64,000 bases of DNA from Dehalococcoidia bacterium (GCA_963668115.1 OY764147.1:1928345-1992344), one strand, 5' to 3'. Shown: positions 371 to 64,000, numbered from the stretch's first letter. Numbers and translations: made by a program. The notes: generated from the sequence alone by a model not told the origin.

Positions 371-1636
371 ATGGGGGATAAGAGCTGGCGCAGAGAGATG
401 TCCAAGATTGACCTCCAAGAATACCAGCAGAGCACGCCAAACCGTCTAACGCCTGAACAACGGGACACCCTAAGGACAGTCATTCCGGACCTCTCCATCG
501 ACCATGTTGCGGGGAGAGAGAGTTTGTACATACTTACCCCCGGATCGACTGTTGGGGCAGTAGAGGTTAATGATCTCTCGGTGGTGATAGAGCCGAAGAT
601 TGGGATATCACAACTTCTGTCGTTGGCGTGCTACGCCATCGGGAAGGTGAAGTTTCAGGAGACGGACGTAGACCTCAGGGAAGAAAAAACGTTGCCGGAT
701 GCGTTGGCTCTCGCGTTATCAGCGGCGGCGAGGCAAGCATTCGGTCGGGGGTTGCTGCATGGGTATCTGGTACATGAAGAGGCGTTGCAGACGGTGCGGG
801 GGCGCATCCGGTTCAATGACCAGATACGGCGGAGGTTCGGAATAGCGCTGCCGGTGGAGGTGCGGTATGACGAGTTTACGGACGATATCACGGAGAACCG
901 GCTGGTGAAGGCGGCGGTGGCCCGGCTTGGCGGGTTGCGGTTGCGGTCGCAGAAGGCGCGGACGGGTCTCGGGTGGGCGTGGGCGATGCTGGACAACGTG
1001 TCGCAGGTGGACTACCGGCCCAAAGACGTGCCGGAAGTGAAGTTCGACAGGCTGAATGAACACTACAGGCAAGTAGTGGCGCTGGCTCGGTTGATTCTGC
1101 GGCACGGGGCTTTTGAGTCGGGGCGGGGGGAGGTGCGGGCACAGGGGTTCCTGATGGACATGAACGTGGTGTTCCAGGAGTTTGTTACGGTGGCGTTGAG
1201 GGAGGCTTTGGGGGTGTCGGCGCAAGTGTTTGGCGAGCAGTGGATTTCTCCATTGGCCGTTGATGGACGGATTGCGCTAAAGCCGGACTTGGTATGGAGG
1301 CGGGGACCTGCTTATAGATTCGTCGGCGATGCGAAATACAAGCATATCAAGGATGACCGCTTTCCCAACGCCGATATCTATCAGATATTTGCATATATGA
1401 CATCGGCTAAGCTACGAAATGGAATGCTAATCTACGCAAAGGGAGAGGTGGAAGATACAACGTATTCGGTGCGGAACGCCGACAAAGAAGTGTACGTGGC
1501 TACGCTAGACCTGGAAGGCGACCTGGATTCGATATTGGGTCGGGTGGAGGAGTTGGCGGAGGGGATTAAGGGACTTGCCGACGTAGGGGGATCACCCTCA
1601 CCCTCTCACGCCCGAGGCGCACTTACAGCCCCTTGA
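371..1636 (+). CDS. mcrC: McrC family 5-methylcytosine-specific restriction endonuclease subunit
   Basis: 421 aa; C-terminal PD-(D/E)xK-like 'KPDLVW...VGDAKYK' motif; RBS agagggg before ATG 371; adjacent to McrB fragment. Confidence 0.7.
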   Translation: MGDKSWRREMSKIDLQEYQQSTPNRLTPEQRDTLRTVIPDLSIDHVAGRESLYILTPGSTVGAVEVNDLSVVIEPKIGISQLLSLACYAIGKVKFQETDVDLREEKTLPDALALALSAAARQAFGRGLLHGYLVHEEALQTVRGRIRFNDQIRRRFGIALPVEVRYDEFTDDITENRLVKAAVARLGGLRLRSQKARTGLGWAWAMLDNVSQVDYRPKDVPEVKFDRLNEHYRQVVALARLILRHGAFESGRGEVRAQGFLMDMNVVFQEFVTVALREALGVSAQVFGEQWISPLAVDGRIALKPDLVWRRGPAYRFVGDAKYKHIKDDRFPNADIYQIFAYMTSAKLRNGMLIYAKGEVEDTTYSVRNADKEVYVATLDLEGDLDSILGRVEELAEGIKGLADVGGSPSPSHARGALTAP

Positions 1637-1649
1637 GGGAGAGGGGACT

Positions 1650-1771
1650 GGACACCACTCCGTTCCGTTCGGTCGACCCTTCGACTCCGCTCAGGGCGAA
1701 CGGAACCCCCACCCCGCGGGATGGATTCACGCCAATGGCGCATCTTCGACCCGACTACTCGGGAATGACGG
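1650..1771 (+). repeat. MITE-like nested-hairpin repeat, copy A (122 bp, identical to 1900..2021)
   Basis: Exact 122-bp direct repeat; outer stem gttccgttcg/cgaacggaac, inner gtcgacccttcgac palindrome; ends with gggaatgacgg module. Confidence 0.85.
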
Positions 1772-1899
1772 CATAAGGTGGGTGGGGATGATGGAGAGGG
1801 GCTTAGGGAGCGACGCTGGAGATTCCTCGCGGGGCATCGGAATGACAGTGTAGTGATGTGCAGGGCTAGGCAAGGGTGAGCGGCACCGCGCCGGGGAGG

Positions 1900-2021
1900 G
1901 GACACCACTCCGTTCCGTTCGGTCGACCCTTCGACTCCGCTCAGGGCGAACGGAACCCCCACCCCGCGGGATGGATTCACGCCAATGGCGCATCTTCGAC
2001 CCGACTACTCGGGAATGACGG
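1900..2021 (+). repeat. MITE-like nested-hairpin repeat, copy B (122 bp, identical to copy A; period 250 bp)
   Basis: Identical to 1650..1771. The 128-bp spacer 1772..1899 carries a 28-bp module (1820..1847) that recurs in reverse complement inside mnmG. Confidence 0.85.
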
Positions 2022-2076
2022 GTTAAAGGGTCGGGAATGATCCGCCATGGGCGGACAGGCTCCCCCGGAGGGTGGG

Positions 2077-3072
2077 TTATTTGGGGAGGACGGTGACTTT
2101 GATGGCGCCGGTGGACTTGTCGAGGGCGGTGTCGAAGGCGTGGGTGATGTGGGTGAGGGGGAAGCGGTGGGTCTGCATGAAGGCGACTTCGGAGGAGTAG
2201 CGGGCGAGGGAGTGTATGGTGGAGGCGAACTCCCGGCCATGGACGCCGACGCCGTACATGCTGGAGCCGACGATGTCGACTTCCTTGGCGACAAGCATGA
2301 GGCCGTCGACCCGGGAGTTGGCGGTGAAGATGCCGAGGATGACGATGCGGGCCTCGGGCTGGGCGGCTTTGATGGCATCGTTGATGGTGTCTGCTGCGCC
2401 GCCTACGGTTTCGATGACTACGTCGGGCTGGCGGTCCCGGGCCCAGTCTTCCCATTCGGTCTCGGAGAGGGGTGTGAGGCCGAGGCGTCGGGCGGCGTCG
2501 AACTGCTGGGGGTGTCGGGCGGTGATGGCGACTTCGGCGGCGCGGTCTCGGGCGAGGAGGCCGGCGAAGAGGCCGATGGTCCCGGCACCCAGGACAAGGA
2601 CACGGCTTTCGATTTTGAGCCGGGCGAGGGCGACGCCGCGGTAGGAGCAGGCCATGGGCTCGACGAGGGAGGCGAGGAGCGGGGGGAGGGAGTCGGGGAC
2701 GGGGTGGAGGGTGTGGGCGGGGACGTCTATAAACTCGGCGAGGCCGCCGGGCTCATCGATGCCGATGAACTTCATGGTTGGGCAGATGTTGGTTGCGCCG
2801 GCGGCGCAGTAGTTACAGTTAAGGCAGGCGTCCAGGGGTTCGATGGCGTAGAGGGAGTCGGGGAGGCCGGCGCCGCCTTCGATTATCGTGCCGACGATCT
2901 CATGGCCCATGACGACGTTGTTGTGCCGCGTGCTACGTCCGGCGTAGACGTGGAGGTCGGAGCCGCAGATGCCGCAGGCGGTGACGGAGATTCGGACGCG
3001 GGTCGGGGGGAGGGGGACGGGTTCGACGTCTTCCACGACCATGCCCTGGGAAGTCCACATTGAGCGCAGCAT
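2077..3072 (-). CDS. Zn-dependent alcohol dehydrogenase (MDR superfamily, sorbitol/threonine dehydrogenase-like)
   Basis: GHEIVG and CGICGSDLH zinc motifs, GAGTIGL NAD-binding motif; start placed at ATG 3072 with GGAGG 8 nt upstream (the longer ORF to 3234 would run into the HAD gene). Confidence 0.85.
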   Translation of the reverse strand: MLRSMWTSQGMVVEDVEPVPLPPTRVRISVTACGICGSDLHVYAGRSTRHNNVVMGHEIVGTIIEGGAGLPDSLYAIEPLDACLNCNYCAAGATNICPTMKFIGIDEPGGLAEFIDVPAHTLHPVPDSLPPLLASLVEPMACSYRGVALARLKIESRVLVLGAGTIGLFAGLLARDRAAEVAITARHPQQFDAARRLGLTPLSETEWEDWARDRQPDVVIETVGGAADTINDAIKAAQPEARIVILGIFTANSRVDGLMLVAKEVDIVGSSMYGVGVHGREFASTIHSLARYSSEVAFMQTHRFPLTHITHAFDTALDKSTGAIKVTVLPK

Positions 3073-3145
3073 AGGGTTGCCTCCGGGGGGTGATGTGGGG
3101 AAGTCTACACGGGCCTCGGGGGGCCGTCCACGAGGAGCGGGGTCT

Positions 3146-37339: not shown

Positions 37340-38593
37340 CTAGATGATGCCTGCCTCCCGGAACCTCTCCACCTCTGCCCAGTCGTACCCGCACTCCTCG
37401 GTCAACACTTCCTCGGTGTGCTGTCCGAACTCGGGGGCCGGATTTCCGACCATAGCCGGAGTCCTGGAAAACTTGACGGGCAGGCCCGTAGTCCTGGTAG
37501 GGCCCATAGTCGGATGCTGTGTGGGAACCACGTACTCGTTTGCGAGCACCTGCGGGTCTGTGGCCGATTCAGCCACCGTATTCACGGAGGTGTATACGAA
37601 CCGCACCTTCCTCCGGGTAAAGAGGTCGGCCCATGATTGTCGGGCCCTGGAGCCGAATGTTGCGATCAGGATATCCCTGAGCTCTGCCGCGTACTGCAGC
37701 CTGCCGGACAGCGTGTTGAATCGCGGATCGCTTACAAACTCATCCAGCCCCATTACGGAGCAAAACTCTTCCCATATCCTCTCCGAATGGGGCTCGTTGA
37801 GCATGAGCCATTTTCCGTCCGCGCACTTGTACCAGTTGACGAAAGGGTCCAGCGAGCCACGGGGAGATGTTCCGAAGGTCGAGTCGTTCTTCCATAGGAA
37901 CATGTGGAAGTTGTCATGCTGGAAGTGCACCGAGCTCCCTAGCATCGAGGCCTCCACCGCCTGCCCCACCCCATGTCTCTCCCTTGCTATCAGGGCTGCC
38001 ATGATGCCATAGACCAGCATCGTGGCGCCCAGCTGGTCAAAGGTCCCGCCCCCGATGATTATTGGGTCCCCGCCCTCGGCGTTGCCCATTCGGTAGGCGA
38101 ATCCGGTATGGGCCTGTATCGAAGAGTCGTAGCCGTGCTTGTTGGCTAACGGCCCTCGGGTCCCGTAGGCGGTGTTAATAGCCCAGATGAGCCTGGGATT
38201 GATGGCGGACAGGGTCTCGTAGTCGACCCCCAGCCGTTCCACCACATCCGTGGTGTAGTTGGTGAAGAAGACATCGGCCTTGGAGACGAGTCTTCGGAGG
38301 ACTTCCTTGCCCTGCTCGCTCTTGAGGTCAAGGGTGATGGCCCGTTTGCCCCGGTTGACCATCTCGAACCACAGGGCCCGACCGCCGGGCAGTTCCAGGC
38401 TGTGGCCGAAGGCCTGGGTGACGCCCCGGCACGGGTCCCCGACCACCGGCTGCTCTATCTTGATTACGTCGGCGCCCAGGTCTCCGAGCATGTAACCTGC
38501 CGCGCCGCCGTTGTGCCAGACGGCCAGCTCAATGACCCGTATCCCCTTCAAGGGCCCCGAGGTACATCCCGCTTCTCCGTTTGCCGAGTCCAT
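37340..38593 (-). CDS. CoA-transferase family III (CaiB/BaiF-like)
   Basis: Start at ATG 38593; GPLKGIRVIELAVWHNGGAAGYMLGDLGADVIKIE N-terminal signature; followed 12 bp later by the MFS gene (operon). Confidence 0.85.
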   Translation of the reverse strand: MDSANGEAGCTSGPLKGIRVIELAVWHNGGAAGYMLGDLGADVIKIEQPVVGDPCRGVTQAFGHSLELPGGRALWFEMVNRGKRAITLDLKSEQGKEVLRRLVSKADVFFTNYTTDVVERLGVDYETLSAINPRLIWAINTAYGTRGPLANKHGYDSSIQAHTGFAYRMGNAEGGDPIIIGGGTFDQLGATMLVYGIMAALIARERHGVGQAVEASMLGSSVHFQHDNFHMFLWKNDSTFGTSPRGSLDPFVNWYKCADGKWLMLNEPHSERIWEEFCSVMGLDEFVSDPRFNTLSGRLQYAAELRDILIATFGSRARQSWADLFTRRKVRFVYTSVNTVAESATDPQVLANEYVVPTQHPTMGPTRTTGLPVKFSRTPAMVGNPAPEFGQHTEEVLTEECGYDWAEVERFREAGII

Positions 38594-38998
38594 GTTGCGC
38601 CCCTTCCCCGGCTCGAAAAATTTTGCCCGACATGATAGACCCGCACCACCCATTCAGCAATACAAATCGGCTTGTGCAAACCCGGTATTGCGCGATTCAC
38701 CACAATGGCCTTATATTGGAAGTACATCAAGAAAGGAGGTGATCAATTGGAAACAGATGATAAACGGACTGGTGAGGTGTCTGTAACGTAAACGGTTTTG
38801 ACACGTAGTCGTGCCCATTGGGTTCCGTTTACGGAATCCGCGCAGGCACCGGGCCCCGAAGCTCCCGGGTAGTCCACCGGGGCGGCCGCAAGGCTGAAGC
38901 GCTTCGGGGCTTTTCCTTTGCCCGTCTTAACTCCAAAACAATCTATCGCCGCACTGCCTAGGGGTCACTACAGGAAGACTCTTAAACATCAGTAAGGC

Positions 38999-40072
38999 CT
39001 AGCAATCAGCCAATGGGAGTTCGGAGAGGTCATTGCTGCGGGCATAATGTAGGAGTCGGGGTATACAGCCGGCAAGACGATTTCCTCCAGCGATATACAG
39101 AGAATTAAGCTCAGACAACTTGCCCAATTCCGGCGGTATCTCTCCGCTCAACTTGTTGTAGTTGAGCCATAATGTTTCCAACTTGGAAAGGTTTCCCAAT
39201 TCCGGCGGTATCTCTCCCGTTAGCTCATTCTCACGGAGATTCAACTCTTCTAGGTTGGAGAGTTCACTCAGTTCGGGCGGTATCTCCCCGCTTAAGTTAT
39301 TATCCCAGAGGCTCAGGCGCTCCAAGCTGAAAAGCTTGCCTAATTCCGGGGGTATCTCCCCGCTTAAGTTATTATCCCAGAGGCTCAGGCGCTCCAAGCT
39401 GAAAAGCTTGCCTAATTCCGGGGGTATCTCCCCGCTTAACCCTTCGAAACCGAGATCCAGTGCCACAACCCGGTCATTCACGGCGGTTACGCCGTCCCAT
39501 TCGCCAATGGGTTTATCGCTTAGCCAGTTTTCGTTACTGTCCCAACTCGGGCCATTCGTAGCGTTGTACAAGGTAATCAAAACTTCCCTATCAGATTCGG
39601 GAGTATGCCAGCAAGGTGGCAGCTCAAGGGATTCTCCCCATTCGGATAACTGATCTTTGTGTAACTCGTCCCATTCAGATGGTATCTCTCCACACAATTC
39701 GTTAAAGCTGAGAGACAGTGATTCCAAGTTGGCAAGTTTGCCTAGTTCCGACGGTATTCGCCCGCTCAACTCATTGTCATCAAGCCACAAAACTTTTAGG
39801 TTGGAGAGTCTACCTAGTTCCGGTGGTATTTCCCCACTCAACTCGTTCCAACTGAGATTCAATACCACAACACGGCCGTTTTCAGTGATGACACCATCCC
39901 ATTCGCCAATGGGCTTATCGCTCAGCCAATTGTCATTATGCCTCCAATCCGGGCCATTTGTAGCGTTATACAAGGTGACCAAAACTTCCCTGTCCGACTC
40001 AGGAGTATCCCCGCAGGCTGACAAAATAATGGACGTTACGCAAATTATCGCCAGTAAGACAACGATCAACAT
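38999..40072 (-). CDS. Leucine-rich-repeat lipoprotein (plant-type LRR units L..LSGEIPPELG), internally duplicated two-domain architecture
   Basis: Signal peptide plus lipobox (ILSAC); two TPESDREVL(V/I)TLYNATNGP...W domain starts; about ten 24-aa LRR units; low-GC region. Confidence 0.8.
   Translation of the reverse strand: MLIVVLLAIICVTSIILSACGDTPESDREVLVTLYNATNGPDWRHNDNWLSDKPIGEWDGVITENGRVVVLNLSWNELSGEIPPELGRLSNLKVLWLDDNELSGRIPSELGKLANLESLSLSFNELCGEIPSEWDELHKDQLSEWGESLELPPCWHTPESDREVLITLYNATNGPSWDSNENWLSDKPIGEWDGVTAVNDRVVALDLGFEGLSGEIPPELGKLFSLERLSLWDNNLSGEIPPELGKLFSLERLSLWDNNLSGEIPPELSELSNLEELNLRENELTGEIPPELGNLSKLETLWLNYNKLSGEIPPELGKLSELNSLYIAGGNRLAGCIPRLLHYARSNDLSELPLADC
39291..39434. 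repeat. Perfect 72-bp x2 tandem repeat inside the LRR gene (two identical 24-aa LRR units)
   Basis: The 72-bp unit tctccccgcttaagttattatcccagaggctcaggcgctccaagctgaaaagcttgcctaattccgggggta occurs twice consecutively. Confidence 0.85.
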
Positions 40073-51722: not shown

Positions 51723-51926
51723 TTAGGCCCAGGCAAGAAAACAGTGGGGGGCCGGTCATGCGACCGGCTCCCCACTGTGGTAACTCCGATCTTTGGCCCC
51801 ATGCTGGGAGGTGGCTGATGGACTAGAAAAGGCGGCATCCGTGCCGCAGCCGGTAATGTGAGCTTAACGCCCATTACAGTTGAGTACGTTGGACTGGTTG
51901 AGCAGCGATTGGAGAAGAGGTTAGCT

Positions 51927-53234
51927 ATGAGAAACGAGACCCGCAATTTCAAGAGCAAGCGGTGGTTGGCCATGGTCCTTCTGTCCCTGGCCCTCGTCGC
52001 CCTGCTAGTGGTTGTGGCTTGCGGAGAGTCCGCCACGGCGACTCCGGAACCCGAGGACGCCATGCCCGAGCCAACCCCCACGGCTATGATGGAACCAGAT
52101 GAGCCGGAGACTTCGTTGCGGCCCATCAGCGAATGGACCGCCGACAACCCCGGCACCCACGATGAGGTCGTTGCTGCCCTGGCAGCCCACCGCGGCGGCA
52201 GTTTCACCTTTGCATCCTGGGGCGGCGCCTACCAGGCCATGCAGCGTCAGGCCTTCCTTGTCCCATTCGCAACTGAATTCGGCGTCGAGATCATTGAAGA
52301 CGGCCCACCCGACTACGCCAAGGTCAGGGCCATGGCCCGCACCGGCAACATCACATGGGACATTATCGACGGCTCCGGCCAGGCCTCAATCACCATGGGC
52401 CTTGAGGGAGTCCTCGAAGAGGTCAACCCCGCTATCGTCGACAAGACCGACCTCTTCCCCCACATCCGGGACGCCCCGTGGATCGGCGGCGGAGGCTCTG
52501 CCTTTTCCCACATGGTCATGTGGAGCAAGGACACCTACGGAGACGACGGGCCCAAGACCATGGCCGACGTTTTCGACAAGGAGAAGTACCCCGGCCGCCG
52601 CGGCATTTTCACCCAGGACTGGGCCTGGAAGCACCGCGTACGCTTCGGACTCCTTATCGATGATCCCACCCTCCTTGACACCGAGGAAGGCAGGGCTTCT
52701 CTGTCGGCCCTCTCTCCCGAGCAGCTCGATTATGCATGGCAGGTTGTCGAAGAAGTGATGATTCCCAATACCGACGTCTTCTTCTCCGGCGCCAGCGACT
52801 GCCCGGCCCTTCTGGAGTCCGGTGAGCTGGACGTTTGCGAGACCGACAACGGCATCGGCTTCGACTCAATCGTCAATAGTGGTCTAAACGCCCACCTGTG
52901 CTGGGAGTGCGGCCACGACGTGCTGACGGACAACTGGTGGACCCCCAAGGGTCTCGCCGAGCAGGAGCCTGAGCGATATGAGCTCATTAACCTGTTCTTC
53001 GCATGGGCCCAGCATCCGGAAATCGCGGCCAGCCAGGCTCTTTACCAGCCCTACGGCCCGACCAACCTGAAGTCGGGACCTTTCCTGGCCGACCCCAAGT
53101 TCGACACCCATAGGCCATACCTGCCCACCGCAGAGGCCAACCTCCCCTTCGCCATCTTGATGGACGAGGCAGCGGACGGAGTAATAGGCGGCGCGCAGGC
53201 GGAAATCTGGTTCGAAGTACAGGGCAAGAACTAG
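51927..53234 (+). CDS. ABC-transporter substrate-binding lipoprotein, tandem paralog (copy 2)
   Basis: Start at ATG 51927; signal, lipobox and linker almost identical to copy 1; mature domain is similar but divergent. Confidence 0.75.
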   Translation: MRNETRNFKSKRWLAMVLLSLALVALLVVVACGESATATPEPEDAMPEPTPTAMMEPDEPETSLRPISEWTADNPGTHDEVVAALAAHRGGSFTFASWGGAYQAMQRQAFLVPFATEFGVEIIEDGPPDYAKVRAMARTGNITWDIIDGSGQASITMGLEGVLEEVNPAIVDKTDLFPHIRDAPWIGGGGSAFSHMVMWSKDTYGDDGPKTMADVFDKEKYPGRRGIFTQDWAWKHRVRFGLLIDDPTLLDTEEGRASLSALSPEQLDYAWQVVEEVMIPNTDVFFSGASDCPALLESGELDVCETDNGIGFDSIVNSGLNAHLCWECGHDVLTDNWWTPKGLAEQEPERYELINLFFAWAQHPEIAASQALYQPYGPTNLKSGPFLADPKFDTHRPYLPTAEANLPFAILMDEAADGVIGGAQAEIWFEVQGKN

Positions 53235-53308: not shown

Positions 53309-55366
53309 CTAGGTTGCCTCAACCCTCTCCCGCCCCCGCTCCAAATGCACCAGCAGCAGGCTGATGTCCGAGGTCCTCACCCCCGGCACCCGGGATGCCT
53401 GCCCCACCGTCAGCGGCACGAAGCGGCCTAGGTTCTCCCGGGCCTCGTTCGAAAGGCCCTTGATCTCCCCGTAGTCCACGTCCTGCGGAATCGGTCTCTG
53501 CTCCAGCCTGCGTATCCTCTCCACCTCCCGGCCCTGACGCTCGATGTAGTCCTGGTACTTGGCCTCGATCTCCACCTGCTCCCTCTCCTCCTCCCCCAGT
53601 CCCTCGTCCCCCAGGCCTAGCTCTACCGCCGTCTGATACCCGACCTCGGGCCTGCGCAGGAACTCCATCCCCGTGACCGCCTTCCGAACGGGCGTCAGCC
53701 CGATGCTTACCAGGTGAGGGTCTATGCTTCCGTCCTGCGGCAGATACGTCTTGCCCAGCCTTTCCATCTCCCGGGTCACCCGGCTACGCTTCTCCTCCAC
53801 CGTCCTGTATTGCCCCTCGCTGAGCAACCCAACGTCATAGCCGATGGGAGCGAGACGGAGGTCGGCGTTGTCCTGACGTAACAGGAGCCGGTGCTCGGCC
53901 CGAGACGTGAGCATCCGATACGGCTCGAAGTGGTCCCGGGTCACCAGGTCGTCTATCATCACCCCCAAATAAGCCTGGTCCCGACGCAATACCATCGGCC
54001 CCCGGCCCTTCACCCGAAGCGCCGCGTTTATCCCCGCCACTATCCCCTGCCCCGCCGCCTCCTCGTACCCCGATGTCCCGCACACCTGCCCCGCCAGGAA
54101 CAGGTTTGGAATCAGCTTTGTCTCCATCGTCGCGTTGATCTGGTCCGTCAACACGAAGTCGTACTCTATGGCGTAGCCGTGCTTCAGTATCTCGGCCCGT
54201 TCCAGCCCCGCTATCGACCTCACGAAGGCTTCCTGCACGTCCTCCGGAAGGCTGGTATTAGCGCCCTGGAGGTACACCTCGTCGGTCTGCCAACCCTCGG
54301 GTTCCAGGAACAGGCCATGTGACTCCTTGTGGGCGAAGCGCACAACCTTGTCCTCGATGGACGGGCAGTACCGTGGCCCGACCCCCTCTATCGAGCCGTT
54401 GAACATCGGCGCCCGGTCCAGGTTTGCAGTGATAAGTTCGTGGGTCATGGGATTCGTGCTCACCAGGTAGCAGGCCATCTGCGGCCGCCACCCCGACTCC
54501 TGGGGCTTGGGATATACCGGATTAGGCGTAGGAAAGCGCAGTGAATCGCCGTTGGCGCCCCAGAAGCTGAAGTGCAGGGGCGTCGGGCTGCCGGGCTGTA
54601 TCCTGGCCTTTGAGAAGTCGATAGTGCGAGCGTCCAGCCGGGGCGGCGTCCCTGTCTTGTGTCTTCCGAGAACGAACCCCAACTGCTTCAACGACTCCGA
54701 TATCTCCGACGCCGCGGGCTCCCCCGCCCGACCCCCCGTGTACGCCCGCTCACCCATGATGATCTTTCCCGCCAGCGACGTCCCTGTAGTCAGCACCACC
54801 GTCCTCCCCACATATGCCTCCCCGGACTTCGTCTCCAAACTGATCCACCCACCCTCAGACAATCCGTCATTCCCACCCCCGAGCCGGAATCCATCCCCTC
54901 CCCCAATATCACTACGACGCCTATCTCCCATGTCATTCCGATGCCCCGCGAGGAATCTGGGGTGGGGTCCGCCTCCTCCCCCCAGCACAATCCCCACAAC
55001 CAAATCCTCCCTGGCCGTCAACCCCTCCTGCCTCTCCAGCGTCCTCCGCATCTCCCGCGCATACATCTCCTTATCCGACTGGGCACGAAGTGCTTGCACC
55101 GCCGGTCCCTTCCCTGTGTTCAGCATACGGATCTGGATGAACGTCTTGTCCGTGTTCCGGCCCATCTCCCCACCCAGCGCATCCACTTCCCGGGCCAGGT
55201 GTCCCTTCGCCGGCCCCCCTATCGACGGGTTGCAAGGCATCAGTGCGATATGGTCCAGCTTCATCGTCAGGACCAGGGTATCGCAACCCATCCGCGCCGC
55301 CGCCAAAGCTGCCTCGCACCCCGCATGCCCCGCCCCGATAACAATTACGTCGTAGGTCTTGGTCAT
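53309..55366 (-). CDS. mnmG: tRNA uridine 5-carboxymethylaminomethyl modification enzyme MnmG (GidA), carrying a roughly 45-aa Gly/Arg-rich in-frame insertion
   Basis: [28 protein letters not shown]-terminus and GidA core motifs; 685 aa versus about 630 typical. Confidence 0.85.
54864..54985 (-). repeat. Repeat-family-derived segment inserted in-frame within mnmG
   Basis: Begins with the ccgtcattccc terminal module; 54931..54958 is an exact 28-bp reverse-complement match to 1820..1847; ggggtgggg module at 54960. Confidence 0.7.
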
Positions 55367-55444: not shown

Positions 55445-55711
55445 ATGCCGTCCGTAGAGTCGGGTCTACAATACACCCGACATGCTCTGCAGGCCATTGA
55501 AGAGCGCAGAATCCAGTTGAACTGGGTTGAGGAGACAATAACAAAACCCGAGTTGCGCACTAACGACCCCGAAGATGAAGAGTTGGAACGCTTCTATAAA
55601 CGCATCCCCGAATATGGGGATCGGGTGTTACGGGCAGTTGTTAACACTCGGGAATCCCCCTGGCGTGTAATAAGCGCTTTCTTTGATGGCAGAATGAGAA
55701 ATAGATTATGA
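55445..55711 (+). CDS. DUF4258-family protein (putative toxin-like partner of DUF2283)
   Basis: 88 aa; overlaps the downstream gene by ATGA; the DUF4258+DUF2283 arrangement is a recognised two-gene module. Confidence 0.5.
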   Translation: MPSVESGLQYTRHALQAIEERRIQLNWVEETITKPELRTNDPEDEELERFYKRIPEYGDRVLRAVVNTRESPWRVISAFFDGRMRNRL

Positions 55712-55908
55712 AGCTATACGTCGATAAGGAAGCCGACGCCCTATACCTGCGTCTGGACGATTCTCCGATATTGGAATCCGAAGAAGTCTCCGCAGGTGTT
55801 GTTCTCGACTACAACGAGGCGAGGGATGTAGTGGGTGTCGAGATGCTAAACCTCTCAAAGCGTTCATCAAGGCTCAACCTCTCCGCCCTTCAGTTCGAGA
55901 CCGTCTAG
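55708..55908 (+). CDS. DUF2283-family small protein
   Basis: MKLYVDKEADALYLRLDD...GVEMLN pattern typical of DUF2283. Confidence 0.55.
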   Translation: MKLYVDKEADALYLRLDDSPILESEEVSAGVVLDYNEARDVVGVEMLNLSKRSSRLNLSALQFETV

Positions 55909-61199: not shown

Positions 61200-61324
61200 T
61201 TCCTGCTTCGACAAGGAATCGAGTATAGCACCGGCCATTCAAAACAGTGGTGGGAAGGGGCAATGCTCCTTCCCACCACTGGACTAATTTACAACTGTAG
61301 CTTCCACTTCAGAGCGAGAATTCG

Positions 61325-61405
61325 TCCCCTTGGGGTGGGGCATTCCGCTCGCCCTGAGCGGAGTCGAAGGGTCTCAAGAGCGGAATGGGTGGGGTGTCCC
61401 GCTCC
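61325..61405 (-). repeat. Nested-hairpin repeat, copy C (reverse orientation relative to copies A/B)
   Basis: Core gccctgagcggagtcgaagggtc identical to the reverse complement of the copy A core; outer stem cattccgctc/gagcggaatg differs from A by compensatory changes. Confidence 0.8.
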
Positions 61406-61491: not shown

Positions 61492-62373
61492 CTACGTTGT
61501 CCCGTTGGAGCCGTCCTCCTGCGCAGTCGCAGCCAGGTTCATGAACGGCTTCAGCACGTTCGTGAACTCCATCGGGAAAATGAACTTGGTGGACGGGCTC
61601 GCCCCGATGTCCTTCAACGTCTCGAAGTACTGTAGGCTCATCGTCTTGGAGTCGACCCCCTGTGCCACCCTGTAGATCTGGTCCAGCGCATTGCTGAATC
61701 CCTCGGCGTTCAGAATCGCCGCCTGTCTGTTGCCCTCGGCCTTCAAAATTTCTGCTTGTCTCAGTCCTTCGGCACTCAGGATGGCAGCCTGCTTCTGGCC
61801 CTCGGCGACGGTGATGTTCGCCTCTTTCTGGCCGTCCGCCTCGGTGACCACCGCCCGGCGTTCCCGCTCGGCGGCCATCTGCCTGTTCATGGCGTGCTGT
61901 ATCTCGGCAGGCGGGTCGATCTCCCGTATCTCGACCGCCGTGACCTTCACCCCCCACCTCCCCGTCACCTCGTCCAGCTTAACCCGCAGGATTTGGTTGA
62001 TCTCCTCCCTCTTTGCCAGGACGTCGTCCAGCGGAATATCCCCGACCACCGCCCTCAGCGTTGTCGTCGCCATTCCGACAATCGCCGCCCTGAAGTCCTG
62101 CACCTCCAGCACGCTCTTCTCCGCCTCGTGGTCCAGCACCTTGTAGTAGATCAGGAAGTCGATGTCTATCGGCGCGTTGTCCTTGGTGATGTTCGTCTGT
62201 CGGGCGACGTCAATGACGTCTTCTCGGAGGTCGACCTTCTGGAAGCTGTCGACGAACGGGATTAGCAGCCGAAGCCCCGCCCCCTTCAGCCCGAAGAACT
62301 TGCCCAGCCTGAAGGGCACCATCCTTTCGTACTGCTTCACTATGATTACCGGAAATATAACGGGTGTAGCCAT
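61492..62373 (-). CDS. SPFH/band-7 (stomatin/prohibitin-like) protein
   Basis: 293 aa; SPFH domain followed by coiled-coil AEGQKQAAILSAEG repeats; downstream of nfeD. Confidence 0.85.
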   Translation of the reverse strand: MATPVIFPVIIVKQYERMVPFRLGKFFGLKGAGLRLLIPFVDSFQKVDLREDVIDVARQTNITKDNAPIDIDFLIYYKVLDHEAEKSVLEVQDFRAAIVGMATTTLRAVVGDIPLDDVLAKREEINQILRVKLDEVTGRWGVKVTAVEIREIDPPAEIQHAMNRQMAAERERRAVVTEADGQKEANITVAEGQKQAAILSAEGLRQAEILKAEGNRQAAILNAEGFSNALDQIYRVAQGVDSKTMSLQYFETLKDIGASPSTKFIFPMEFTNVLKPFMNLAATAQEDGSNGTT

Positions 62374-63764: not shown

Positions 63765-63870
63765 CCGTCATTCCCGCAAGAGCCAAATGCCGCTCGCTTC
63801 AGGGGTGGGGCAGAATCCGCTCATCCTGAGCAGGGTCGAAGGGTCGAGCGGATTCTGGGAGGTGTCCCCC
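63765..63870 (-). repeat. Nested-hairpin repeat, copy D (full length, with terminal modules ccgtcattccc ... ggtgtccccc)
   Basis: Outer stem cagaatccgctc/gagcggattctg (12 bp, compensatory relative to A and C); core atcctgagcagggtcgaagggtc. Confidence 0.8.
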
Positions 63871-63914
63871 TAACGGGCAGGCCATGTAAATGTCACTGCT
63901 ACGAAGAGTGGAGG

Positions 63915-63972
63915 CGATGTGGGGCCGCTCATACTGAGCCCTGTCGAAGCATGAGCCGGGGGAGCGGTCGTT
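63915..63972. repeat. Related short hairpin repeat, copy E (ccgctcatactgagccctgtcgaagcatgagccggggagcgg)
   Basis: Shares the ctgagc...gtcgaag motif; stems gctcat/atgagc and ccgctc/gagcgg. Confidence 0.6.
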
Positions 63973-64000
63973 GCTATAATCTCACCAGGGACGGCTTCCC

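Follow-up and report, generated by a model that had tools for sequence, protein, structure and literature searches.

Identical hairpin repeats after mcrC in a Dehalococcoidia genome: a probable mosaic of small REP/BIME-type modules

What kind of sequence forms two identical 122-bp copies after mcrC in a Dehalococcoidia bacterium (GCA_963668115.1, OY764147.1:1928345-1992344), and how might it have come to be there? A preliminary description of this DNA had presented the copies as members of a family resembling both miniature inverted-repeat transposable elements (MITEs) and repetitive extragenic palindromes (REPs). We examined the window (the whole 64,000-nt stretch, with positions counted from its first base) together with fragments of related genomes of up to 8 kb, whose loci are designated here by L-numbers. 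The explanation that we favour, with moderate confidence, is that the copies belong to a mosaic of small non-coding hairpin repeats of the type found in REPs and in bacterial interspersed mosaic elements (BIMEs), which are non-autonomous and moved or copied by an activity acting in trans, and that they are not one transposon. The REP/BIME label itself fits what is observed, namely dispersed palindromes in extragenic positions that form strain-variable mosaics of modules. The modules are a C-rich backbone, a nested hairpin (A') and a tagged unit (B).

The two copies (1650-1771 and 1900-2021) are identical over their full 122 bp, as had been claimed, and the match ends exactly at both edges; with flanks included, identity is 97% over 134 nt, or 94% over 150 nt if gaps are allowed. 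A 23-nt core, CCCTTCGACTCCGCTCAGGGCGA, has three mismatch-free occurrences (1677, 1927 and, on the minus strand, 61349), against an expectation of 0.00 from shuffles of the window. The loop motif TTCGACnnnGCTCAG is present at 1680, at 1930 and, on the minus strand, at 61354, 63826 and 63934, and thus at all five sites for which copies had been proposed. A covariance model based on eight Dehalococcoidia copies was also searched against the window, on both strands and with filters off. This recovered 61324-61405 (98.4 bits), 1893-1974 (86.9 bits), 1643-1724 (85.7 bits) and 63794-63870 (44.2 bits), all four with E below 1e-7, and gave a weak match to copy 5 at 63909-63975 (12.3 bits, E 0.74); there was no match beyond those five copies over the whole 64 kb. 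The copies are grouped at both ends of the window, with none detected by the model in the intervening 59 kb. With at least six B-type units in addition to the five copies of A', the 64 kb contains a dispersed set of short imperfect palindromes. Both the loop motif and the model place the three related copies (3, 4 and 5; Table 1) where they had been reported, and related elements are present in other Dehalococcoidia genomes too.

Dissection of the repeat indicates that it is a composite. The preliminary description had treated the 122 bp as a single element, a view that we abandon in favour of a mosaic of separable parts: a C-rich backbone (GGACACC...CCCCACCCC) carrying an inserted A', followed by a CGTC-type unit B. 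Hairpin A' is nested, with an outer stem of 9-10 bp (TTCCGTTCG/CGAACGGAA in copies 1 and 2) around a 4-bp stem, CCCT/AGGG, and a 12-nt loop, TCGACnnnGCTC; in Dehalococcoidia it consists of a core (unit A, see below) within an extra outer stem of 6-11 bp (CCGCTC/GAGCGG or CCGTTCG/CGAACGG). In the eight Dehalococcoidia copies, three pairs of the outer stem show compensatory changes, and 93.8% of outer-stem cells are paired as compared with 31-50% when the partner column is slid. The proposal of a dispersed nested-hairpin family of about 80-120 bp is thus sustained, its stems being backed by compensatory changes. Two details of that proposal hold only in part: the inner palindrome GTCGACCCTTCGAC is predicted in copies 1 and 2, but only 4 bp of it survive in copy 4 and copy 3 lacks it, so that the inner stem common to the family is CCCT/AGGG around the loop; and the supposedly conserved terminus CCGTCATTCCC is present in copies 1, 2 and 4 but not in the others.

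Unit B, GGATTC...GGAATGACGG, can be written as a CGTC-tagged REP, GTCATTCC...GGAATC. On the other strand 1723-1771 reads CCGTC-ATTC...GAAT-CC, in which a CGTC tag precedes a stem with an AT start. The tag of the B units, CCGTCATTCC, lies on the opposite strand of 1761-1771 and 2011-2021 and on the plus strand at 63765-63775 and 54864-54874; the B units of the window have a 5-bp ATTCC stem and loops of 12 to about 34 nt. We assign unit B to the CGTC-tagged REPs of Di Nocera, De Gregorio and Rocco (2013, BMC Genomics 14:522, PMC3733652), of which it is a degenerate member.

Comparison with close relatives shows that these modules come and go separately. In the mcrC-ADH spacer of L208, where the zinc-type alcohol dehydrogenase (ADH) is 88% identical, copy 1 is absent, a different A' subtype occupies the position of copy 2, and the spacer module B' is in place. 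Next to ADH, at 3487-3593 of L208, lies a hairpin-less allele, GGGAGAGGGGATTGGACACC-CCGCA-CCACCCCTCGGGATGGATTC...GGAATGACGG, in which backbone and B are present and A' is missing between GGACACC and CCACCCC. It follows that A' was inserted into a backbone, and this allele is useful as an empty-site reference; the flank GAGGGAGAGGGGAYTGGACACC, from the leading module to the left of copy 1, is found again in the L208 backbone. Towards the other end of the window, the nfeD-SPFH-proB block is syntenic in five relatives with SPFH proteins 94-99% identical. The SPFH-proB spacer measures 253 nt in the window and 71-110 nt in L202, L204 and L206, all of which lack the copy-3 block of about 150 nt that starts right after the SPFH stop codon. 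Copy 5 is orthologously present in L206 and copy 4 is absent there, with CCCCAC on both sides of the junction. The A/B arrays upstream of nfeD differ strongly among L202, L203 and L205, and near-identical elements of the copy-3 type occur at non-orthologous loci of other Dehalococcoidia genomes (e.g. L017). Since loci with neighbouring proteins 88-99% identical differ in copies 1, 3 and 4, gain and loss of modules must be fast and independent. The earlier suggestion of mobility is in accord with the presence and absence of modules among L202, L204, L206 and L208.

A second module, B', lies in the spacer between copies 1 and 2. Its opposite strand carries a TGTC tag, an ATTCC stem, a 12-nt loop, GGAAT and C, and the module is conserved at the orthologous position of L208 and is carried by L005 and L115 as well. 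An exact 28-bp match links 1820-1847 with 54931-54958, on the opposite strand within mnmG. This match belongs to an in-frame insert in mnmG, which amounts to 126 nt by DNA alignment with the 93%-identical, insert-free ortholog L120 and contains two units built like B' (tag, stem, loop, return stem, C). By protein alignment the insert is absent from P0007, P0043 and P0044 and variable in length in other orthologs (proteins of 643-749 aa); in orthologs that are 78-93% identical, the site ranges from an empty state to over 100 additional residues of repeated units. The insert is located between two beta strands. An AlphaFold2 model of MnmG was poor (mean pLDDT 55), with the insert disordered and half of the protein likewise. 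The match with mnmG upholds the notion of a second, independent module in the spacer. The mnmG segment, which had been taken for a derivative of the hairpin, is indeed repeat-related, but its kin is the B-type spacer module and not A'.

The position of the copies with respect to genes is similarly consistent with REPs. Copies 1 and 2 lie between two converging Pfam-confirmed genes, McrC (371-1636, plus strand) and ADH (2077-3099, minus strand); copy 3 lies between the stop codon of an SPFH/Band 7 gene (61492-62373, minus strand) and the start of proB, and copies 4 and 5 are intergenic, upstream of nfeD. Homologs of MnmG and SPFH carry Dehalococcoidia or Chloroflexota annotation. Every A' copy sits between genes, as had been stated for the intact copies, mainly after genes or between convergent genes, and the sole intragenic exception is mnmG with its B-type units. 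The repeats are tolerated only where they follow directly on a stop codon or keep the reading frame within one variable part of MnmG.

These locations have consequences for annotation. Repeats account for about 0.5 kb of sequence behind mcrC, for 135 nt within mnmG and for the surroundings of nfeD and SPFH. The 'RPERSRRV' and 'LSGVEGS' peptides had been explained as read-through of the repeat elements, which our analysis corroborates, and the antisense ORFs that contain them are spurious. Repeat DNA supplies the final codons of mcrC and possibly those of SPFH. The last approximately 10 codons of mcrC (1583-1636, plus strand; ...ADVGGSPSPSHARGALTAP and stop) come from repeat DNA, and the L208 ortholog ends in ...GLAGVV; the McrC ORF is 10 codons longer than this ortholog, in which the leading-module block is missing at that position. 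SPFH is one residue longer than in relatives without copy 3. A terminator-like hairpin, GGTGGGAAGG...CCTTCCCACCACTGTTTT, is situated between SPFH and proB (about 61240-61280, minus strand) and is kept in all relatives compared (L202, L204 and L206), with or without a repeat insertion.

Table 1. Repeat modules and related segments of the 64-kb window
Feature	Position	Strand	Description
Leading module	1595..1646	+	Inverted repeat CCCTCACCCTCTC...GAGGGAGAGGGG; left flank of copy 1; overlaps final mcrC codons
Copy 1, 122-bp composite	1650..1771	+	Hairpin A', C-rich linker, unit B; identical to copy 2
Copy 1, outer stem	1662-1671/1697-1706		
Copy 1, inner stem and loop	1677-1680/1693-1696; loop 1681-1692		Loop TCGACTCCGCTC
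Copy 1, unit B	1723-1771		GGATTCAC...GGGAATGACGG
Spacer unit B'	1820..1847	+	GAGATTCCTCGCGGGGCATCGGAATGAC; between copies 1 and 2
Hairpin-like segment	1872..1883	+	AAGGGTGAGCGG; aligns with intact L208 hairpin CCCCGCTCGACCCTTCGACGGGGCTCAGGGTGAGCGG; by this alignment looks like a 3'-half remnant of an older 'class II' A' hairpin
Copy 2, 122-bp composite	1900..2021	+	Hairpin 1912-1956, loop 1931-1942, unit B 1973-2021
Degenerate B-like stub	2028..2043	+	GGGTCGGGAATGATCC; just ahead of ADH stop codon; similar flank after copy 1
mnmG in-frame insert	54848..54982	-	About 45 codons; two B-type (CGTC/TGTC-tagged) units; gene 53309-55366
Copy 3	61324..61405	-	A' hairpin, outer stem ATTCCGCTC/GAGCGGAAT, flanks GGGACACCCCACCC and GCCCCACCCC; without B unit
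Copy 4	63765..63870	-	A' hairpin GAATCCGCTC/GAGCGGATTC, C-rich linker, CGTC-tagged half-unit with end GGGAATGACGG
Copy 5, short relative	63909..63975	-	Stem GCTCAT/ATGAGC, loop TCGACAGGGCTC

Several known repeat systems resemble this mosaic in part. The CGTC-tagged REPs were defined by an unpaired CGTC, TGTC or CCTC tag, stems of 8-9 bp with an AT start, loops of 4-5 nt and a short tail; they form mostly tags-outside (HH) inverted dimers, have occasional in-frame intragenic copies and lack a dedicated transposase, and their superfamily, listed in five phyla that do not include the Chloroflexi, takes in dRS3 of Neisseria and RPE-4 and RPE-6 of Rickettsia (PMC3733652). The elements described here share the CGTC/TGTC tag, a stem beginning with A-T, T-A, a tail starting with C, a predominance of tags-outside inverted dimers and a location mostly after genes with an occasional in-frame copy within a gene, and no linked transposase was found in either case. 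The window B units (CCGTCATTCCC...) and their peptides GNDG and RNDM match units of the CGTC-1 type, for which the intragenic peptides VIPAKAGI and DSRLRGND have been published (PMC3733652). The assignment would add the Chloroflexi to the phyla listed with CGTC-type REPs. There are also differences: the stem of unit A has 5 bp (published, 8-9) and its apical segment 11-12 nt (published loops, 4-5), the window B units fit loosely, with shorter stems and longer loops, and the tag of the window A units is GTTC or GCTC and is paired within the outer stem. The CGTC or TGTC tag is a feature of the cross-phylum unit A and of the window B units, not of the window A' hairpins.

BIMEs of Escherichia coli are mosaics of REP sequences (also termed palindromic units, PU) and other short motifs, and binding of gyrase and integration host factor (IHF) is among their functions. 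They resemble the present repeats as strain-variable intergenic mosaics of a few short modules after genes or between convergent genes (see PMC2817692), but the sequences are unrelated and the E. coli REPs are of the GTAG type. REPINs (Bertels and Rainey 2011, PMC3116915) are likewise non-autonomous hairpin repeats, often inverted doublets, and their movement was proposed to depend on recognition of the single-stranded hairpin by a single-copy, trans-acting transposase, RAYT. Unlike in that system, no RAYT gene was found near the copies at the 119 loci listed, the tag is not GTAG, and the core, in contrast to the lineage-specific REPIN sequences, is common to several phyla. A parallel to the mnmG insert is offered by Rickettsia palindromic elements (RPEs), which are in-frame palindromic repeats in conserved protein genes; lineage and sequence differ, and the array here is hypervariable and sits at one MnmG hot spot. 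Finally, QMITE2 of Coxiella burnetii (Wachter et al. 2018, PMC5896051) is a composite of 150-190 bp with a REP hairpin, occurs in 3' regions and often overlaps final codons, as at the ends of mcrC and SPFH, but has terminal inverted repeats (TIRs), direct repeats of 7-11 nt and a GTAG REP targeted by IS1111.

The core of A' extends well beyond the Dehalococcoidia. On its tag-first strand, unit A consists of a (C/T)GTC tag, a 5-bp covarying stem, GAGCGNAGTCGA, the return stem and C, which as a DNA oligonucleotide can be written d(GTCATCCTGAGCGAAGTCGAAGGATC); the 11-12-nt apical segment, GAGC(G)NAGTCGA, is conserved and the stem usually has an A-T start. A search of the genome collection with the pattern GACCCTTCGACNNNGCTCAGGRYGA returned at least 119 stretches, and among the matches listed the 25-nt hairpin core is nearly unchanged across more than 14 phyla. 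These matches include Chloroflexota, Bacillota (Clostridia), Bacteroidota, Spirochaetota, Planctomycetota, Cyanobacteriota, Zixibacteria, Ignavibacteria, Cloacimonadota, Eremiobacterota, SAR324, groups of the candidate phyla radiation (CPR) and Alpha-, Beta-, Gamma- and Deltaproteobacteria, and cultured isolates among them are Moraxella lacunata, Algoriphagus, Mucilaginibacter and Sphingomonas. This distribution shows that the core is not specific to one lineage.

Evidence for the stem comes also from units that the search pattern did not dictate. The same loci contain units of the form GTCA-NNNN-GAGCGNAGTCGA-N'N'N'N'-TC with many different complementary stems, and in a scan of viral contigs with the stem left free four perfect Watson-Crick pairs were present in 50 of 59 matches, with at least 10 stem sequences. 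At the loci among the matches listed, a perfect 5-bp stem, of one of 26 types, is found in 206 of 398 distinct units, and most of these stems begin with A-T (e.g. ATCCC, ATTCC and ATGCT); the tags of these 206 units include TGTC (118), CGTC (30), GTTC (21) and GCTC (12). Proteobacteria-like contigs often carry a variant with an 11-nt loop, GAGCTTGTCGA, which is followed 10-30 nt on by a canonical CGTC REP, TGGATTCCCGCnnnnGCGGGAATGAC; this A-then-B order, the same as in the window, recurs in 31 metagenome contigs. Unit pairs within 120 nt at the loci among the matches listed are tag-out inverted (35), tag-in (13) or tandem (9). The window copies are single units and not inverted dimers. A description of unit A did not emerge from the searchable literature, where strings from the DNA core and peptides returned unrelated primer matches only, and a literature search for MITEs in Dehalococcoidia found nothing; the cross-phylum core motif seems to be uncatalogued.

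This breadth raises the possibility, which we put forward tentatively and think on the whole unlikely, of one domain-wide REP family, hitherto uncatalogued, whose apical sequence is kept as the recognition structure of a widespread enzyme that also mobilizes CGTC REPs. The form recognized would probably be a folded single strand of DNA that contains tandem G.A pairs and a GNA triloop. Near-identity of the apical sequence spans CPR bacteria, Bacteroidota, Cyanobacteriota, Pseudomonadota and Chloroflexota. If true, such an enzyme would be the missing mobilizing activity of the 'orphan' CGTC REP superfamily. Two leads were discarded: strand inference from G.T versus A.C mismatches, in which an excess of G.T (41) was caused by the search pattern fixing one arm, and resemblances seen by eye between GCTCAGGRYGAACG and the 5' end of 16S rRNA and between the core and the Tn3 inverted repeat, which cover about 14 nt only and were taken as coincidence.

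Returning to the mosaic of REP/BIME-type modules, we propose that the units are non-autonomous and spread as DNA. An enzyme acting in trans, and not encoded nearby, may recognize the folded single strand (an unpaired tag plus a structured hairpin), as has been suggested for REP/RAYT and for the ends of IS200/IS605. The apex, read tag-first, is predicted to comprise tandem sheared G.A pairs, one G-C pair, a bulged T and a C(GNA)G triloop; marginal stability combined with a strictly conserved apical 12 nt points to recognition by a protein or to non-canonical pairing. The 122-bp identity of copies 1 and 2 within diverged flanks would be due to local duplication or gene conversion, probably very recent, and any effects on mRNA 3' ends would be secondary. 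We know of no mobilizing enzyme for CGTC-type REPs, a large bacterial repeat class. The lineage offers many near-identical genomes that differ by single module gains or losses, together with an 'empty backbone' allele, and the spread and recognition of CGTC-type REPs are thus open to comparative genomics and simple biochemistry; these natural 'with and without' alleles and the cross-phylum core hairpin are the parts most worth pursuing.

A number of observations weigh against this interpretation. By nearest-neighbour rules the basic unit folds only marginally, with -1.5 kcal/mol as DNA and -4.3 kcal/mol as RNA, no better than shuffles, and the structured apical loop of unit A is putative. The window A' tag, GTTC or GCTC, is base-paired in the outer stem and so departs from the CGTC definition. 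Clustering of neighbouring ORFs within 1.5 kb of the 119 loci listed gave no recurrent protein family, and the mobilizing activity is in consequence purely inferred; nor was a Y1 (HUH) REP-associated transposase found next to the window copies or recurrently near those 119 loci. Gains cannot be distinguished from losses without a phylogeny. Copies 1, 2 and 3, moreover, share the sense of their upstream gene and lie directly after stop codons, an arrangement that a role in the 3' untranslated region (3'-UTR) would fit too. A link to genes for small GIY-YIG/URI nucleases was rejected: a six-frame motif scan of 905 kb yielded none, and the neighbour clustering gave no recurrent family. GC skew in the window tracks the coding strand and is uninformative on replication direction.

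Such a 3'-UTR role is the substance of an alternative reading, a functional RNA hairpin (exonuclease block, terminator or source of a small RNA, sRNA) kept by selection rather than by mobility, which we regard as improbable. In addition to the sense orientation of copies 1-3, the position of copies 1 and 2 between convergent genes and of copy 3 after the SPFH stop is what such an element would show, and the stems covary; 3'-UTR effects of E. coli REPs are documented (10.64898/2026.03.23.713779; PMC12306157), and sRNAs arise from Coxiella MITEs (PMC5896051). The orientation of the wider set of units, however, is unbiased with respect to flanking genes: the 169 units outside long ORFs comprise 51 sense and 41 antisense downstream of genes and 50 and 59, respectively, upstream. 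Rfam scans of the window and 16 representative loci, at gathering thresholds and permissively at E up to 10, gave no match at the elements, and no terminator-like T runs were seen there. The conserved terminator-like hairpin after SPFH is separate from copy 3 and is present in relatives that lack this copy. B-type units stand in frame within mnmG, and copies are dispensable at loci where neighbouring proteins are 94-99% identical.

A classical MITE is less probable still. It would be a deletion derivative of an insertion sequence (IS), 110-200 bp long, with TIRs and target-site duplications, and would be moved by a DDE transposase encoded elsewhere. Size, copy number and insertion polymorphisms among relatives are compatible with this, short direct repeats flank some blocks (CCCCAC around the copy-4 block and, as read by eye, GT(A)GGGGAT-like strings around the copy-1 block), and IS5-type DDE_Tnp_1 and rve transposase genes adjoin the arrays in L202 and L203. 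Yet the ends, GGGGACACC... and ...GGGAATGACGG, are not complementary, and the inverted repeats are internal hairpins. Boundaries vary from copy to copy (copy 3 is without B, copy 5 without flanks), modules are found separately, and the core is common to phyla with unrelated IS families. The C-rich flanks are similar between copies and occur without the hairpin in L208, and thus look like part of the element or target and not like random duplications. The REP half of the original 'MITE/REP-like' label is therefore retained, and the MITE half finds no support: the two ends do not form an inverted pair, and the window and the fragments of related genomes of up to 8 kb revealed neither a clear target-site duplication nor a parent IS. 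A duplication of one element by the assembler, to which 100% identity over 122 bp with differing flanks might point, is scarcely credible given those different flanks, a unique 128-bp spacer whose B' is conserved in the independent assembly L208, a chromosome-scale source record of 3.01 Mb, and the related copies at other sites of the window and in numerous independent assemblies.

Other features of these loci were recorded in passing. The transposase genes beside the nfeD-proximal arrays are IS5-like (DUF772/DDE_Tnp_1) and rve-type, at 1-559 of L202 and at 271-1728 and 6771-7451 of L203. Upstream of mnmG on the plus strand is a pair of small genes, 55445-55711 and 55708-55908, whose stop and start overlap in ATGA; the first encodes a DUF4258 protein (E 1.5e-13, with weak similarity to BrnT toxin) and the second a DUF2283 protein (E 7e-15), and from these domain matches the pair looks like a toxin-antitoxin-type module. 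A full-length Rfam match to RF02471, Ms_IGR-5, lies at 38724-38918 on the plus strand (58.8 bits, gathering score 45, E 1.6e-10), between genes for a family III CoA-transferase (37340-38653, minus strand) and a leucine-rich repeat lipoprotein (38999-40072, minus strand); this family is described as an 'Actinobacteria sRNA', and its occurrence in a Dehalococcoidia genome is odd. Internal 72-nt periodic repeats at 39117-40023 (minus strand) are the leucine-rich repeats of that lipoprotein gene. Diverged, gene-length direct repeats, 70-79% identical, are found at 8.6-15.3 kb, 43.8-45.4 kb and 50.5-53.2 kb; they are spaced by 947, 1316 and 1512-1518 nt and look like tandem paralogous genes, one family of which encodes a periplasmic solute-binding-type protein (51858-53234).

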